41,363 bases of DNA from an uncultured virus (IMG/VR IMGVR_UViG_3300035698_023946) (Duplodnaviria; Heunggongvirae; Uroviricota; Caudoviricetes). Below, piece by piece: positions 1 through 7,379 of the stretch; position 1 is the stretch's first letter; each line of letters starts with the position of its first letter. The translations under genes were made by a program, and so were the position numbers. The DNA is taken from the IMG/VR virus record IMGVR_UViG_3300035698_023946, one strand, 5' to 3'. Below the pieces are notes generated by a model. The model was not told the DNA's origin. It ran no database searches and worked only from the letters and a program-made list of their open reading frames with translations.

Positions 1-419
1 TTCTTTATCTCTTCTTTCATCTCAGAAAGAGTAATTCCCTTAGAATCGAATAGTTGCAAAAACTTTTCCAACTCCCTTATCATTAATCCATCATCTTCTT
101 CTTTAGACCAGCCTAAACTGATTCCATAATTTTCCTCAATATATTCTAAAACCTCTTGCCAAGAACTTATTCCATTAACTTGCTTAATCAGCTCAATTTG
201 ATCCCCTCCCTTCTTACAGCCAAAACAATGCCACAAGTTCTCTTCAAAATCAATCGAACAAGAAGGAGTGTTCTCTCTATGAATAGGACATAAAACCATT
301 TCCGTTGACGATCTTTTGGAATATTCTATTCCAAAATCTTTCAAAACATCTTCAATAGAAATTATGTTTTTAATCTTTTGTGCAAGTTCTTTTGAAACTT
401 TAAAATCTTTAGTATCCAT
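1..419 (-). CDS. DnaG-type primase N-terminal CHC2 zinc-finger protein (partial; runs off the window start)
   Basis: Not in the ORF track. Manual translation from ATG at 419 gives MDTKDFKVSKELAQKIKNIISIEDVLKDFGIEYSKRSSTEMVLCPIHRENTPSCSIDFEENLWHCFGCKKGGDQIELIKQVNGISSWQEVLEYI..., open to position 1. CPxH...CxxC(xxGGD) is the primase zinc-binding domain. It lies directly downstream of the DnaB-like gene. No TOPRIM domain is visible in the window. Confidence 0.85.
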   Translation of the reverse strand, partial: MDTKDFKVSKELAQKIKNIISIEDVLKDFGIEYSKRSSTEMVLCPIHRENTPSCSIDFEENLWHCFGCKKGGDQIELIKQVNGISSWQEVLEYIEENYGISLGWSKEEDDGLMIRELEKFLQLFDSKGITLSEMKEEIK

Positions 420-2872: not shown

Positions 2873-3082
2873 TCAATCATCAAGAAGTAATTTACGGCCA
2901 ATAGCTCGATACTCAAGAGATCTCTTGATAGGTTCAACCATAGCTTCTGCAAGAGTTTTTCGACCTTCATTACAATCTAAAGCCGCAGTCATGATAAGTT
3001 CTCTTTCATAATCTCTGATAGGAATCGAAAAAGTAGGATGTTCTTGAATACTTTTCGGAAGTGATTTTATTTTGATTAACAT
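2873..3082 (-). CDS. Small hypothetical protein (~69 aa); C-terminal half resembles the N-terminus of a large-phage major capsid protein
   Basis: Likely start is ATG 3082, overlapping the upstream stop (ATGTTAA); the track starts at 3115. The segment ELIMTAALDCNEGRKTLAEAMVEPIKRSLEYRAIGRKLL is a recalled similarity only, not searched. Confidence 0.6.
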   Translation of the reverse strand: MLIKIKSLPKSIQEHPTFSIPIRDYERELIMTAALDCNEGRKTLAEAMVEPIKRSLEYRAIGRKLLLDD

Positions 3083-4014
3083 TTTTTCAATTCTCTTTTT
3101 AACTGAAGTAAACATTTCAAAGAAGATCGATTAGGATGACCGTTCAACCACCAACTCTTTTTTCTCAAGTTCAACGCATCGACAGACTTGTTCATAAATA
3201 CCTTCCAATCAGGAATCTCTGATTTACTCAACTCATTTCGGAAAGGATAAGGTCCCCAGTAAATAGAATTCTTGATGACATCTTCCAGGAAACGAGTTTC
3301 ATCTTTCAAGCTAGTCAATTCGAACTTAAGTCTATTCTTTATCGTTTCATAAATTATCTCATGAGTTCTTTGAGGAGTTTTTTTGAATCTCTTCCAAATG
3401 AAATACTGCATCACAGGAATTCCCATTTGGCGAATGAGATGATCTAGGTTTTTCACTTCATCATCAAGAGACTCAAACAAAGTGTCCTGATCGATCCTGA
3501 CTCCTCTAAGATTCTTGTCCCAAAATCTTTCTCTTTCTCTCATTGGTTCAATATTGTTCACAAAATAATAAGGTATCCTCTTTTTAACAATGGAAACAAA
3601 AGCATAAAACTTCACATCATTTTCCAACATCCATGGAAATGTGTTTTGGTAAATATCGAAATACATATTCTTCAATTCTTCATTTGTGAAAAAATACTCT
3701 TCAAAAGCAATCTTCCGAATGTCTGAAAACGTGATATTGAAAGTTTTCAAATCCATCGGAAACTTTGTATCAAAAAAACTCTGGTATAAATCAGTTATGA
3801 ACTTTCTCCAGTGAGTGAAAGTCCAACCATCTACAGGTATTTGTAAATCAATGGGAAGTTTTTGTTGAACGGGTATGATTGAGGTTTTTACAAATCCTTT
3901 ATCATCAAAAAAAATCGGATTTCTTGGAACAAACTGTTTTTCAGGTATTTTGACCATTTCTTCACAAGTGTCAGATAAAAGTGACTTTTTCATGAGATCA
4001 ACTGCAGATACCAT
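3076..4014 (-). CDS. Hypothetical protein (312 aa); possible origin-binding/initiator protein by position
   Basis: Long ORF with AAGGAG about 9 nt upstream of the ATG; first gene downstream of the candidate origin and the 4163-4191 promoter; no recognisable motif. Confidence 0.75.
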   Translation of the reverse strand: MVSAVDLMKKSLLSDTCEEMVKIPEKQFVPRNPIFFDDKGFVKTSIIPVQQKLPIDLQIPVDGWTFTHWRKFITDLYQSFFDTKFPMDLKTFNITFSDIRKIAFEEYFFTNEELKNMYFDIYQNTFPWMLENDVKFYAFVSIVKKRIPYYFVNNIEPMRERERFWDKNLRGVRIDQDTLFESLDDEVKNLDHLIRQMGIPVMQYFIWKRFKKTPQRTHEIIYETIKNRLKFELTSLKDETRFLEDVIKNSIYWGPYPFRNELSKSEIPDWKVFMNKSVDALNLRKKSWWLNGHPNRSSLKCLLQLKRELKKC

Positions 4015-4162
4015 CGATAAATTTCTCCTTTTAACAAATCTTACGTGGTGATTGGATTTTCATTCAGGGATACCCTCACTCATCTATTCTCATTAACAAA
4101 ATGAAAAGCATCTGTTTTTCTGTTCCTTTTAAAGTTCGAAAATGAACACTTTCTTCTTTCTT

Positions 4163-4191
4163 ATTATATTTTCAATTTCCCTAAAACTCAA
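4163..4191 (-). promoter_or_regulatory. Sigma70-type promoter firing away from the candidate origin into the replication operon
   Basis: Minus strand TTGAGT (4191-4186), 17 nt spacer, TATAAT (4168-4163). Confidence 0.7.
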
Positions 4192-4192
4192 G

Positions 4193-4660
4193 CCCTTTTT
4201 TCTTTTTTGCTTTGCTGTTTCTGCTGTTCTTTCCTCTGGCGACCGAAGGGAGACTGCCAATCGTGAGCGTCATGAGCCAAAGGCGAATAGCGAAGGGTTG
4301 CAAAAGTGCTTTCTTTGGTGGAGGCATCTCTGAAAGAGTGCTGTAACCAAAAAAGTGCTTTAATTGAGAGTCGTTCAAAATTTTGTCATTCTAAGGGGTC
4401 ATTCATGTACCCCCAATATAGCCCCTCATTCTTGTGGCCCCATATATGGGGGGTCAATTTTGGTAAAAATCTTATTACAAGACTTCGTCTTGATGACCCC
4501 TTCACTCCGTTCACGGATCATGATGTCCTTCGGACATGGGTAGAAGAGAAAAAGAAGAAAAGAAAAGAAGCAAAAGAAAAAAAGAAAGTTTTATAAAAGA
4601 ATGGCCCCCCATATATGACCCCCCATATATGGGGCCTCTATATAGACCCCCCAATACTCG
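4193..4660. other. Candidate origin of replication (non-coding, dyad-symmetric)
   Basis: Only large intergenic gap, embedded among replication genes; pyrimidine tract 4193-4237 opposite purine tract 4541-4588, GAA-loop mini-hairpins on opposite strands, and GC-rich palindromic repeats. Confidence 0.6.
4436..4636. repeat. Perfect 21-bp inverted repeat pair, each arm with the palindrome CCCCATATATGGGG
   Basis: GGCCCCATATATGGGGGGTCA (4436-4456) is the exact reverse complement of TGACCCCCCATATATGGGGCC (4616-4636); partial copies at about 4408-4421, 4603-4617 and 4645-4656. Confidence 0.92.
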
Positions 4661-4775
4661 ACCCGCAAACGGCTCTCGTTATTATACGAAAAAATATATC
4701 CCACCACGAATTGGACCAAGTTAAAATCTTGTTTATCATTAATATGGTTCTAGAGAGGCTTGTAAGTGGTTGATT

Positions 4776-5630
4776 TCACTGAACTAAGATGGATTCTATT
4801 TGATCTATTTCCTCTTCAGAAATGTCCGGTGTATCGTAAATAAAAGAAATGAAGAATTTTGAATGTCTAGTTAACGACAAGCTGTTTTTTTCTATATGAA
4901 AACCATTTTTGCAAGCTTTTGGAATTTCAATTAAGGTTGTTTTGTTCAATATCGTCCTCTTGATTTTTTGACCTTTCAAGGCTGTGATGAATGGAATTTT
5001 ATATATGAGGACCACATTCAAGTCATTGTCACATTCAATTTCAAAAGCATCTTTTGAAATCAATTTTTTGTCATTGATTAACTTAGGAACGAAATTTATG
5101 ATGAGGCTTGTCGTCTCGTCAATGTCTCTCACAGCTCTTCTTTGGATCAATTCCCTAGGATGCACGATGATGGTCTCATTAAAAACTTTTCCATTAGGTA
5201 GCCTCAACTCTTTTTCAATGGTTTTTCCATAGTAAAGGTCTAGGAAGGTAAGCTCATATATGACGTTTTGAACAATTTGTCGATTAAAAACTCCCCTTCC
5301 TCCAAACAGGTCTTCAAAATTGAATCCACCAGGAAACCCTGATCCTCCAAAACCGCCACCTCTGGCTCCTGAAGACCCGAACGGAGATTTAGGCACTTTG
5401 GGATTAAACCCTGTCTCCATGTCGTATGAGCGTCTTTTAATGGGGTCTGAGAGGATTTCATATGCCTCTTGAACTTCTTTGAACTTGTTTTCCGCTTCAG
5501 CATCACCCTGATTTCTGTCAGGATGATGCTTGAGGCATAATTCACGATACTTTTTCTTTAAAGATTCATCTCCATCTTCAAAATTTGATAAAATTCCAAT
5601 TGTTTCGTAATGATTAGTTGTTTCATTCAT
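4776..5630 (-). CDS. DnaJ-family co-chaperone (J domain, G/F-rich region, C-terminal domain, no zinc finger)
   Basis: [14 protein letters not shown]...[26 protein letters not shown] domain with [35 protein letters not shown] and [10 protein letters not shown]-terminal motifs; no CxxCxGxG repeats. Confidence 0.9.
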
Positions 5631-5631
5631 C

Positions 5632-7287
5632 TTATATTATGTCTGATTTGCTTTCTTTTTCAAATTTAACAATTTTAGCGACCTTACTAGGGTCCTCTCT
5701 CAAAAAGTAATTCTCATCAACAACTTCTACGTCAAATAGTTCTTCAGATTTATAAGTTCTCTTTCTAGCTAATGCATGTTTTTTGCAATATTTGCATTCA
5801 TCCATGAAATCGATGACAATTGCTTCAGTTTTTCCCTCAAAAGGACGGATTACCCTTCCGATTCGTTGTAAAGCCTTTGTTTTACTCTTCCCGGAACCGG
5901 CCAAGATCAAAACATCTAAACTAGGGATATCCAGACCTTCATCGGCAAGCGTTGTGGCAATCATGATTTTAAGAGTTCTATTTCTCAAATTCTCAATAGC
6001 TTCATTTCTTTTTTTAGAGCTTTTTGTTCCATCTATAAACACTGCGTCTGGAAGCAACTCTTGTAAAAGCTTACCATGTTTTATTTGCCTAACAAGAATC
6101 AAGATAGATTTATCAGCTTCAGAAAACACGTTAGCCCAATGAGAAATCCACCTGTTTCTATCCTCGTTTTCAACAATTTCTTCCTTATATTCTGTTTGAT
6201 AAGATTTTGATCGACACCGATTGTTTACTTTCCACATGAATATTTTTGGTTTAACTAAATACCCATTTTGGATCAAGTGTGAAGAATCTACATTTATCAA
6301 ATTTTCTCCAAAAAGACCCTCTATCGTAATGTCCTCACCATCTTCTCGAAAGGGAGTTGCAGAAAGTCCGAATTTATACAATGCGTTTTGACATTCGAAT
6401 AAAACATTTCTGCATGTTTCTGCAGGAGCATGTTGGCATTCGTCAAAAAACAACAATCTCACTTCATGCAATAGGTGCATGACCATTTTCATTTGATCTT
6501 GATCGACTTCTCCTTCTTCCATGTCTCCCAGACCACCATCCATCCATTCTGAAATCTCTTTTATTGAAGCGGAAAACTCGTCGGCTTTTCCTAAACATCT
6601 CATGACTGTTTGAATTGTGGCAACATTGATCTTTTTAATTTCACACTTACTGTCGCCAATGATTCCGACTTCCCCTTCCATATCTAAAGAAGTTTCAAAA
6701 CATGACTTCGCTTGATATAAGAGATCTTTAGTAGTAACTAAAAACAATACAGGATAGATTCCTAATTGTTTAATAATGTTGGCAGCAACAATTGTCTTTC
6801 CGCCACCAGTGGCAATCTGTAGAAGACCTCTTTTTTTAGATAAGGCAACATCGATACATCTTTGTTGATACTCTCTTATCTTATAATCTTCATTCCAATT
6901 TAAGTTTAGATCGATATCTTCATTTGCAGAATACTCGGTCGCATGTTCTATCATTGGAAACACGTTATACTTGGCCATGACTCTGATTATTCTTGGAACA
7001 TTACCTGTCAAAAGCATCCAAGGTTCTGTCACATATCTTTTCCAGGCAATTTTCTTCAAAGGGATTCCAGTCAGGTTTATGAGATGCTTCCGACCGTCCC
7101 ACAACCGATTCCCATCTCTGTCAAATTTGTTGTACATTTGAGTGTGTTCTCTGCCAATGACAGGAAAGGAAAGTTCTGTGTCAATTTCGTTGAGCATTGG
7201 GCCATAATAGTACTCTAACTCATTTGGAACAACCAACTTAGAGAGAATATTTCCGATAACAATTGTGGGTCTGCGGTCTTGATCCAT
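5632..7287 (-). CDS. Superfamily 2 DExH helicase (UvsW/XPB-like)
   Basis: Q motif IREYQQ, Walker A IATGGGKT, motif II FFDECQH, motif III LSATP, motif V ADEGLDIP, motif [10 protein letters not shown]. Confidence 0.92.
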
Positions 7288-7293
7288 ATACTA

Positions 7294-7322
7294 AGTTTAC
7301 TCCAAACCTAAAACAAAAACAA
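7294..7322 (-). promoter_or_regulatory. Possible sigma70-like promoter for the SF2 helicase-dnaJ unit, possibly leaderless
   Basis: Minus strand TTGTTT, 17 nt spacer, TAAACT, then 6 nt to the ATG at 7287; overlaps the upstream terminator. Confidence 0.35.
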
Positions 7323-7346
7323 CCCCATATTGAATATGAGGTTGCC
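7311..7346 (-). terminator. Rho-independent terminator after the 44-aa gene
   Basis: Minus-strand RNA GGCAACCUCAUAU-UCA-AUAUGGGGUUGUU forms a stem with G:U pairs and runs into a U-rich tail (UUUUUGUUUU). Confidence 0.75.
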
Positions 7347-7379
7347 TTTGATTAAAGAGAAATTATCTAGGTATTTATT

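Follow-up and report, generated by a model that had tools for sequence, protein, structure and literature searches.

A candidate replication origin and control region in the non-coding gap upstream of a phage replisome-loading operon

Gene context and coding status of the gap

The DNA analysed here (hereafter, the window) is a 41,363-nt stretch, part of the genome of an uncultured salt-lake phage, and its sole long non-coding gap lies at 4015–4775 (761 bp). Directly downstream of this gap is an operon encoding an orphan 312-aa protein, a DnaC-like loader, DnaB, and the DnaG primase, and genes for a J-domain protein and a helicase lie on the other side. The main features of the locus are as follows:

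3–419, zinc ribbon of DnaG (CHC2, PF01807, E 5.5e-19)
447–2054, DnaB
2060–2794, DnaC-like loader (weak match)
3076–4014, minus strand, gene of the orphan 312-aa protein, first gene of the operon
4015–4775, non-coding gap between the orphan gene (3076–4014, minus strand) and the DnaJ-domain gene (4776–5630, minus strand), the unit that holds all the elements described below
4776–5630, minus strand, J-domain (DnaJ-domain) protein
5632–7287, SF2 helicase

Based on codon usage, the gap ORFs are spurious-like and non-coding; an earlier, sequence-only reading of this DNA had named a translated ORF among the findings that would refute it. The 12 ORFs of at least 40 aa that overlap the gap score from -0.24 to +0.02, as spurious ORFs do and lower than the 5th percentile of chunks of real genes (0.082), and no Pfam family exceeded its cut-off in the gap, the sole match to a gap ORF being YxzE with 18 bits against a cut-off of 40. 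Proteins encoded across the purine and pyrimidine tracts (see below) were considered, namely a 63-aa hydrophobic ORF (4142–4333), a 47-aa ORF (4511–4654), and a 96-aa ORF (4306–4596), and were rejected on their spurious-like codon usage; open frames through the tracts are uninformative, because pure purine or pyrimidine runs are automatically free of stop codons. The gap contains no tRNA, tmRNA, or Rfam family. Across the window, no Rfam match reached the gathering score, and the best matches at relaxed thresholds (E ≥0.3) scored far below it.

The core of the gap is GC-rich (99.98th percentile of the window) in an AT-rich genome, and 469–778 window positions have a less stable duplex than the gap. 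DnaA boxes are absent from the gap (7 in the window vs 13.6 expected). A GC-skew inflection, put forward earlier as a mark of the origin, was not found at the gap in the window, where skew tracks the coding strand. Contigs from four salt-lake sequencing runs carry the identical sequence at 2–4x depth with zero variants. A depth spike at 4512–4618 was discarded, since it was produced by unrelated contigs matching the low-complexity purine tract. A search of the phage collection for close relatives at the DNA level gave no match.

Tracts, hairpins, and palindromes within the gap

The gap contains two mirrored tracts together with hairpins and palindromes, and every motif coordinate of the sequence-only reading proved correct. 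The elements are listed from left to right:

4163–4191, minus strand, promoter-like TTGAGT-17-TATAAT (10/12 matches) of the orphan/loader/DnaB/DnaG operon
4193–4237, plus strand, pyrimidine tract (40/45), which on the minus strand is an A-rich purine tract adjoining the promoter-like site of the operon on its upstream side
4243–4249, plus strand, CCGAAGG mini-hairpin motif, 6 nt past the end of the pyrimidine tract
4290–4296, plus strand, GCGAAGG, the second plus-strand C-GAA-G motif
4303–4361, plus strand, 59-nt imperfect hairpin with the tip CTCT-GAA-AGAG (4328–4338) and a direct repeat, AAAAGTGCTTT, in its arms
4393–4430, degenerate C-run/AT/G-run copies, GGGGTCATTCATGTACCCCC and CCCCCAATATAGCCCC, from k-mer enrichment
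4436–4453, palindrome GGCCCCATATATGGGGGG, iteron-like site 1, with a terminator-like score on the plus strand
4492–4478, minus strand, hairpin CAAGAC-GAA-GTCTTG (6-bp stem, GAA triloop)
4517–4506, minus strand, hairpin TCCG-TGAA-CGGA (4-bp stem only)
4537–4523, minus strand, hairpin ATGTCC-GAA-GGACAT (6-bp stem), which includes CCGAAGG, 8–9 nt past the end of the pyrimidine tract
4542–4588, plus strand, purine tract (46/47, 80% A+T), equivalent to a pyrimidine tract on the minus strand
4603–4654, C-run/ATATAT/G-run cluster with a half-site at 4607, a full palindrome at 4621–4634, and CTCTATATAGACCCCCC

The two pyrimidine tracts, noted earlier as lying one on each strand and facing inward, are the top two purine/pyrimidine-skewed 45-nt windows of the 41,363 nt, with purine fractions of 0.98 (4542–4588) and 0.11 (4193–4237) and a next value of 0.22; among 200 simulations with a first-order Markov model, none produced a 45-nt window beyond 0.91. 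The tract at 4193–4237 forms an imperfect inverted repeat (33 nt, 73% complementary) with 4555–4587, and the A+T content of 4550–4599 is 80%, whereas the core of the gap is GC-rich. Two of the five CCGAAGG copies in the window lie in the gap, one per strand, and each starts 6–9 nt past the 3' end of the pyrimidine tract of its own strand. The broader pattern [GC]CG[AG]AG[GC] has 16 matches in the window, three of them in the gap. The chance that two random 15-mers have a 7-mer in common is p ~0.008, which bears on the mirrored CCGAAGG, whereas the alignment of the arms beyond the tracts is marginal (score 26 vs 19 ± 3.6, p ~0.06). The shared design is therefore limited to the tract and CCGAAGG: this part of the proposal that the same design appears on both strands stands, and the full hairpin series does not extend to both.

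The two 6-bp C-GAA-G hairpins of the minus strand are perfect and spaced 45 nt apart, and the window has only 11 such perfect hairpins whose stem reaches 6 bp and whose loop is 3 nt; pairs of such hairpins at most 60 nt apart with the same loop and closing pair occurred in 2/300 simulated windows. TCCG-TGAA-CGGA is real, with a stem of just 4 bp, and the segment holding all three hairpins folds moderately better than shuffles (DNA z -2.5; 4/200 shuffles equal or better). On the plus strand, CC-GAA-GG (4243) and GCC-AAA-GGC (4276) have stems of 2–3 bp and do not stand out as hairpins, and neither strand of 4236–4300 folds better than its shuffles (DNA z +0.77, +1.0; RNA z -0.13, +1.18), a weak test because ViennaRNA gives sheared G.A mini-hairpins no bonus. 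The third plus-strand hairpin (4328) survives as the tip of the 59-nt hairpin, which on the plus strand has an RNA fold of -24.8 kcal/mol (z -4.3) and a DNA fold of -12.9 kcal/mol (z -3.9), with 0/200 shuffles as good, and is weaker on the minus strand (z -2.2). Folding of each strand, suggested earlier as a check, favoured 4303–4361 clearly and the three-hairpin segment moderately.

Palindromes of the form CCCCATATATGGGG are confined to the gap within the window. All five matches to CCCCATATATG (at most one mismatch) fall in the gap, at 4438–4634, and 0/100 shuffles attain five. C-rich 7–9-mers are >100-fold enriched in the gap, and k-mer enrichment shows GACCCC, ACCCCC, and GGGGTCA to be concentrated there. 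Palindrome site 1 with its flank (4436–4463) forms a 28-nt inverted repeat (89%) with 4609–4636, the 4603–4654 cluster folds as DNA with z -3.3 (plus strand) and -3.2 (minus strand), and degenerate palindrome copies lie at 4393–4430 and 4636–4654. A search of viral_contigs with the paired-palindrome pattern gave 0 matches. In copy number, these clustered, putative initiator-binding repeats agree with lambda-like iterons.

Gaps of relatives and the orphan protein

A distant relative (G001, a 125-kb contig carrying locus L001) keeps the orphan/loader/DnaB/DnaG operon, with a flanking protein that is only 22% identical. The corresponding gap exceeds every other ORF-free stretch of the 125 kb in length (857 nt; next, 481), its core is GC-rich (99.94th percentile), and it holds the sole cluster of three GCGNAGC motifs within 150 nt among the 34 motifs of the contig. 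A gap of at least 636 nt lies upstream of the orphan homologue in 3/3 loci with at least 600 nt of upstream sequence (window, 761; L001, 857; L003, ≥636, where the contig ends); loci L002, L004, and L005 have at most 170 nt upstream, and L006 is identical to L001. The gaps carry repeats of their own: ATTCAATCTATAGGCT three times in L003, and GAGCGAAG twice and ATCA(C/T)TCTTCAAA twice in L001, where a third, TCTTCAAAAC, was found on reading. A private repeated motif in each gap is as expected of iterons co-evolving with their initiator. Alignments among the gaps of the relatives gave no score above shuffles; with no alignable similarity between them, the covariation test in syntenic intergenic regions that had been proposed as a check is impossible.

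The tract-then-hairpin design is not seen in L001, where mini-hairpin motifs lie in a purine-rich stretch and mostly on one strand, and the L003 gap contains no X-CG-N(1-2)-AG-X' motif. Taking all gaps together, mini-hairpin-type motifs are modestly enriched (11 vs 5.0 expected, p 0.014). The cumulative skew minimum of G001 falls exactly at its gap, where 86 minus-strand ORFs switch to plus-strand ORFs; this skew reports coding strand and not replication, because skew stays negative in a minus-strand block lying right of the gap.

An exhaustive search of 1.84 billion representatives found 11 homologues of the orphan protein, and the order orphan-loader-DnaB-DnaG is kept in the window, L001, and L005. 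Its predicted structure is all-helical and confident (pLDDT 82). Pfam returned no family for the protein of the window and only noise (E ≥0.1) across 10 members, PDB sequences and Foldseek gave no match, and a word-index search and the Protein Atlas returned no relatives and nothing above chance, respectively. Single-protein scans found no relatives in viral_contigs and none in genome_contigs, and a further viral scan recovered the same contig only. Fold comparison listed, among unrelated helical proteins, the DnaD-domain structures 2i5u (Z 4.7) and 2zc2 (Z 3.9) together with several sigma-factor chains (Z 3.6–4.6); no initiator family matched by sequence or fold. Modelled as a complex, orphan and loader reached a score of 0.14 (mark 0.32), which speaks neither for nor against binding. 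The position of its gene makes the orphan a candidate origin-binding or organiser protein; its family combines a confident new helical fold with a constant first place in the operon, which makes it a concrete candidate for a novel family of initiators.

Interpretation and comparison with known systems

We tentatively read the gap at 4015–4775, upstream of the replisome-loading operon, as a replication origin and control region, of which the tracts and hairpins would form the central part; judged from sequence features, this could well be what the region is. The sequence-only reading had gone further, to a bidirectional origin with two helicase-loading or priming sites: gene context makes an origin plausible, whereas two such sites are only a possibility, given that the plus-strand hairpins are weak and the design is not seen in L001. 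By analogy to ssiA/ssiB of RSF1010, priming sites on both strands are nevertheless plausible. At such an origin, a dimeric phage protein, the candidate by position being the product of the orphan gene, would bind the palindromes, the neighbouring A+T-rich purine/pyrimidine tract would open, and the phage loader would put DnaB onto the opened DNA; the adjacent J-domain protein could recruit host DnaK for loader release in the manner of lambda. C-GAA-G hairpins would remain folded in the single strands and mark the starts of a DnaG-type primase, with synthesis then running outward across the pyrimidine tracts on both strands.

A bolder version, which we regard as a long shot, is a hitherto undescribed way for a phage to start replication in both directions. 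C-GAA-G mini-hairpins on the two strands, still folded once the duplex has opened, would each mark a start a few bases from a ~45-nt pyrimidine template, and outward synthesis would begin with a long polypurine RNA, whose unusually stable hybrid with the template might let it remain in place as a primer of the R-loop or polypurine-tract kind. An orphan family of all-helical initiators, with no relatives known, would recognise this origin, and the origins of the phage group would share mini-hairpin clusters as their conserved hallmark.

The main rival explanation is a purely transcriptional control region with no origin, made up of a terminator of the helicase and J-domain genes, repressor operators (the palindromes), an A-rich tract acting like the UP element found upstream of promoters, and a leader. 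We consider it somewhat doubtful, even though the left tract and the right palindromes can be explained in this way without any origin. On the minus strand, TTGAGT-17-TATAAT lies directly downstream of the A-rich tract and a good Shine-Dalgarno sequence precedes the ATG at 4014, yet the promoter-like site is weak evidence because the window as a whole holds about as many of these matches as chance would give (69 vs 65.6 expected). On the right, the minus-strand hairpin 4636–4603 is followed by ATTCTTTT, and the hairpin and T-rich run within 4603–4654 resemble an intrinsic terminator of the DnaJ/helicase genes; this site was seen in folds and is absent from the list of the terminator scan, which does include the plus-strand palindrome at 4435–4456. 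Terminator-like sites also exceed expectation in the L001 gap (3 vs 0.6). Against a transcriptional role for the whole gap, a terminator and a promoter need ~200–250 bp, compared with the 761–857 bp present, and the 47-nt T-run extends far beyond a terminator tail. The mirrored CCGAAGG, the twin GAA hairpins, and the GC-rich core would be left unexplained, as would the largest-gap status in the 125-kb relative. Some parts of the region probably serve transcription as well as replication, namely the left A-rich tract beside the promoter-like site and the terminator-like palindromes and T-run on the right.

The GC-rich core, which recurs in G001, could instead encode one or more small structured RNAs or a long structured leader, its hairpins being RNA helices, and the 59-nt hairpin does fold better on the plus strand owing to G.U pairs; in L001, 4236–4385 folds well as plus-strand RNA (z -3.1), and gene-sense terminator-like hairpins have no upstream co-directional gene to terminate. 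This is unlikely, as neither tRNA nor tmRNA was detected, no Rfam family was found in the window, L001, L002, or L003 at gathering or relaxed thresholds, and a 301-nt candidate (4175–4475) and the 150-nt cores of the window fold with z of only -1.6 and of -1.1 and -1.9, respectively. A functionless relic is still harder to accept, whether as low-complexity slippage tracts and palindromes at a rearrangement boundary or as a decayed miniature inverted-repeat element. Gene orientation at the gap does differ between the window and G001, and the 28-nt, 89% inverted repeat (4436–4463/4609–4636) brackets hairpins and the purine tract, but the 41 kb contain no further copy, the contigs of four runs do not differ in sequence, several independent features each exceed chance, and the combination of long gap, GC-rich core, and mini-hairpin cluster recurs in a relative with a flanking protein of only 22% identity. 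Least probable of all, in our view, are N4-type single-stranded hairpin promoters, in which an extruded template-strand C-GAA-G hairpin would recruit a phage RNA polymerase that starts ~10 nt away and transcribes outward over the pyrimidine tract. N4 promoters have a short-stemmed hairpin, a purine-rich loop of 3 nt, and a start at such a distance, and the minus strand does carry two 6-bp stems with GAA triloops, with purine tracts starting 4–11 nt from the hairpins. The plus-strand copy, however, has a stem of only 2 bp, and transcription to the right would run antisense to the J-domain gene. No T7- or N4-like RNA polymerase was found: PF00940 gave no match in G001 (a weak result, as the control genomes of the search gave none either), and three giant ORFs have no Pfam or PHROG assignment (no PHROG match; sub-cut-off Pfam matches and one VWA match without a passing stretch, in a window that is a partial genome).

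To our knowledge, the origins of uncultured phages have almost never been mapped, and we know of hairpin-marked priming so far from ssDNA phages and IncQ plasmids. If the region is merely a terminator, promoter, or operator array, the finding is ordinary. As an origin, it would provide a signature, namely the largest non-coding gap, situated upstream of an organiser/loader/DnaB/DnaG operon, in which private palindromes and mini-hairpin motifs accompany a GC-rich core. This signature could serve the annotation of replication modules, the design of vectors for unexplored hosts, and the interpretation of coverage data. If the mirrored tract-plus-hairpin units are true start sites, hairpin-marked priming would extend to a large double-stranded phage.

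Among known systems, the gap resembles lambdoid ori-lambda (O, P, and host DnaB/DnaK/DnaJ), where dyad-symmetric repeat sites adjoin an A+T-rich tract followed by inverted repeats; the lambda iterons are 19-bp imperfect inverted repeats beside an AT-rich tract (PMC7466680). Both lie at replication-initiation genes, with a loader and a J-domain protein encoded nearby in the window. In contrast to lambda, whose sites are inside the initiator gene, those of the gap are non-coding and comprise just two perfect palindromes plus half or degenerate copies in two clusters 150 nt apart; the orphan, as candidate initiator, shows no resemblance to lambda O, DnaB and DnaG are both encoded by the phage itself, and the tract is a near-pure purine/pyrimidine run with a mirror copy.

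The oriV of RSF1010 (IncQ) has two ssi signals on complementary strands that are exposed by the helicase (PMC8567376), and the gap is similar in its paired, inverted single-strand signals on complementary strands, from which synthesis would follow helicase exposure. The mini-hairpin of ssiA contains the heptamer CCGAAGG, identical to that of the gap, and the phage G4 origin contains GCGAAAGC (both from PMC13037366). The RSF1010 signals are similar to each other over ~40 nt and have a ~20-nt hairpin each, whereas in the gap CCGAAGG is mirrored (p ~0.008), the arms align marginally (p ~0.06), and the hairpins amount to 15 nt (6-bp stem) on the minus strand and a 2-bp stem on the plus strand. IncQ oriV also lacks the long pyrimidine tracts of the gap, and the primase of the window has a DnaG-type CHC2 zinc ribbon, unlike the Pri-type RepB' of RSF1010. 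By its title, a paper cited in PMC8567376 reports that DnaG-dependent priming signals can replace ssiA and ssiB.

N4 virion-RNA-polymerase promoters share with the gap the 6-bp stems and the GAA triloop (PMC13037366), but no N4-like polymerase was detected (by a weak PF00940 search), and location and orientation are unfit for early-gene promoters. With G4-type DnaG-dependent complementary-strand origins (PMC13037366), the gap and its operon have in common a DnaG-type primase and a series of neighbouring stable hairpins on a single strand, some of them mini-hairpin motifs; those origins belong to ssDNA phages, whereas the phage studied here is double-stranded and encodes its own helicase.

Gene setting of the gap

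The minus strand of the window encodes a phage-type replication module, in which a non-coding gap separates an orphan gene from a J-domain gene.

Replication module and adjoining genes of the window
3-419, minus: DnaG CHC2 zinc ribbon
447-2054, minus: DnaB-like helicase
2060-2794, minus: DnaC-like loader, weak (PHROG 3277, E 7e-6)
3076-4014, minus: orphan gene, 312 aa
4015-4775: gap of 761 bp between the orphan and J-domain genes
4776-5630, minus: phage-encoded J-domain (DnaJ) protein, adjoining the replication genes
5632-7287, minus: SF2 helicase

In phage lambda, host DnaJ recruits host DnaK and the helicase loader is released; by analogy, the phage J-domain protein could recruit host DnaK for loader release. 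Immediately upstream of the SF2 helicase gene, a strong terminator-like hairpin (17 pairs followed by a T-run; 7314-7350, minus strand) marks where a separate transcription unit begins. Beyond this helicase are a glycosyltransferase and three consecutive giant ORFs (1,828, 5,919, and 2,030 aa) that fill 29 kb (9126-38481, minus strand). These ORFs have no convincing family: Pfam matches were marginal (VWA barely over the cut-off, without a passing stretch; Sortilin and tachylectin under it), and PHROG gave no match. Contigs from four salt-lake metagenome runs are identical to the window (depth 2-4x). No nucleotide match was found among 50,697 phage records, and the helicase relatives found share only ~23% identity.

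The orphan gave no match by word-indexed search; 11 relatives were found among 1.84 billion representatives. In this family, the orphan is always the first gene ahead of the loader-like gene, DnaB, and DnaG. Its AlphaFold model is confident and all-helical (pLDDT 82, pTM 0.79), with no clear structural relative in PDB or BFVD. The only structural hints were weak rows for DnaD domains (Z 4.7, 3.9) and sigma factors (Z 3.6-4.6), and these predicted resemblances serve as leads only.

Tracts, hairpins, and dyad sites

The gap is non-coding. All 12 overlapping ORFs of at least 40 aa score as spurious ORFs do, and the gap contains no Pfam family above cut-off, no Rfam family, and no tRNA. Its core (4209-4358) has 50% GC compared to 36.7% for the window (99.98th percentile), and 3 of the window's 16 [GC]CG[AG]AG[GC] motifs are in the gap, where ~0.24 are expected.

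The sequence-only reading had described, on each strand, a pyrimidine tract followed by C-GAA-G-type hairpins, and its motif coordinates all proved right. Both tracts (4193-4237, pyrimidine on the plus strand; 4542-4588, pyrimidine on the minus strand) are real and exceptional, being the two most extreme 45-nt purine/pyrimidine windows of the 41 kb (purine fraction 0.11 for 4193-4237 and 0.98 for 4544-4588; next-ranked 0.22). In 200 Markov simulations, the most extreme 45-nt window never exceeded 0.91. On each strand, CCGAAGG occurs 6-9 nt beyond the pyrimidine tract's 3' end (two of the window's five copies are inside the gap), and the chance that two 15-mers have a 7-mer in common is p ~0.008.

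The minus-strand hairpins ATGTCC-GAA-GGACAT and CAAGAC-GAA-GTCTTG are beyond chance: both are among the 11 perfect hairpins of the window (stem of at least 6 bp, 3-nt loop), and 2 of 300 simulations produced neighbouring hairpins that agree in loop and closing pair. The plus-strand half has the motifs but is weaker than that reading suggested. The stems of CC-GAA-GG and GCC-AAA-GGC are only 2-3 bp, folding of 4236-4300 on either strand is not above shuffles (under an energy model that gives sheared G.A mini-hairpins no reward), and the arms past the tracts align marginally (p ~0.06). CTCT-GAA-AGAG sits at the apex of a 59-nt hairpin (4303-4361) with z -4.3 (RNA) and z -3.9 (DNA) against shuffles of the plus strand. 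Folded as ssDNA, either strand of the entire gap outperforms its shuffles (z -3.1 and -4.1; 20 shuffles per strand), and much of this excess is owed to tract-to-tract pairing and palindromes. Two perfect hairpins with a 10-bp stem and 3-nt loop are located within coding sequence, at 314-336 (primase gene; GAA loop, minus strand) and 5038-5060 (J-domain gene), and are the longest among the window's 43 such hairpins.

The most repeated element of the gap, absent from the sequence-only reading, is a dyad site composed of a C-run, ATATAT, and a G-run.

Dyad sites of the gap
4436-4453: dyad site GGCCCCATATATGGGGGG
4603-4636: dyad site GGCCCCCCATATATGACCCCCCATATATGGGGCC
4393-4430 and 4636-4654: degenerate dyad copies

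All five window matches to CCCCATATATG (at most one mismatch) are in the gap, a number reached by none of 100 shuffles, and 7-9-mers related to the dyad sites are >100-fold enriched there. With their flanks, the two dyad sites form a 28-nt inverted repeat (89%) that brackets three hairpins and the purine tract.

The gap in relatives

Six loci were recovered with the alignment; two of them (L001 and L006) are identical. The window, L001 (orphan homologue at 4830-5786), and L005 keep the order orphan, ~250-aa protein, DnaB, DnaG, and L004 keeps it partly. Wherever enough upstream sequence is present (three loci), the orphan homologue is preceded by a long ORF-free stretch, of 761, 857, and at least 636 nt; the remaining three loci end within 170 nt upstream. 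L001 belongs to a 125-kb contig, G001, in which no ORF-free stretch is longer than the gap (857 nt; next 481). The core of this gap has 57% GC (99.94th percentile), and the gap holds the contig's only cluster of three GCGNAGC within 150 nt (34 in total; the 31 outside the gap give ~0.2 expected per 857 nt).

Each gap carries its own set of repeats. Other observations count against the comparison: the relatives' gaps have no alignable sequence in common, mini-hairpin-type motifs pooled over gaps are only modestly enriched (11 vs 5.0 expected, p 0.014), with none in the gap of L003, and L001 does not show a pyrimidine tract followed by a hairpin. Gene direction on the helicase side of the gap is inverted between the two phages, running with the replication operon in the window and diverging from it in G001 (107216-108072); the gap is therefore a rearrangement boundary.

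Two terminator-like hairpins with T-runs (4051-4190 and 4678-4705, gene-sense plus strand) are present in the L001 gap with no co-directional gene upstream, and a promoter-like TTCACA-17-TATTAA was seen by eye ahead of the first; this gap may hold one or two small RNA genes. In L002, a short piece of upstream sequence (1-70) is strongly enriched in CG (8 vs 1.1 expected); it contains GCGCAAGC and CCGCAAGG, both on the non-gene strand, then a T-run on the gene strand.

No skew inflection marks the gap in the window, where cumulative GC skew falls on either side. In G001, the global cumulative-skew minimum is at the gap (107-108 kb), which is also the switch point from 86 minus-strand ORFs to plus-strand ORFs, and skew is negative again in a minus-strand block to the right. 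Skew therefore tracks the coding strand and is uninformative on replication here.

Origin reading, rivals, and precedents

In position, size, and content, the gap is compatible with a phage origin and control region. The pattern described in the sequence-only reading is confirmed in part, and its interpretation is supported in part; a replication origin with its control region is our best, if tentative, reading. Two defined priming or loading sites would be an attractive detail of it and, judging from the geometry, synthesis would proceed outward over the pyrimidine tracts on both strands. Transcription signals probably overlap the gap region. Because a promoter-like site lies directly downstream of the minus-strand A-rich tract and a T-run comes after the right palindromes on the minus strand, a purely transcriptional control region is the main rival, but it leaves unexplained the gap size and the mirrored CCGAAGG and twin hairpins, and does not account for a GC-rich, mini-hairpin-rich core that recurs in a relative with a 22%-identical flanking protein. 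Reading the hairpins as N4-type promoters would call for a matching polymerase, and none was found in a PF00940 search of G001, in which control genomes also gave no match.

Membership of the IncQ type was rejected on the primase type (DnaG CHC2 zinc ribbon here) and the plus-strand stem; unlike IncQ, the plus-strand CCGAAGG copy of the gap has a 2-bp stem only. Lambda iterons are 19-bp inverted repeats (PMC7466680); the private dyad sites of the gap resemble them and, as in lambda, adjoin an A+T-rich tract; the gap also has strand-specific hairpins. The phage G4 origin contains GCGAAAGC (PMC13037366). For the mirrored signals, RSF1010 oriV is the nearest precedent, with two ssi signals on complementary strands that are exposed by helicase and used by primase (PMC8567376), and the CCGAAGG mini-hairpin of the gap is likewise found in ssiA (PMC13037366).
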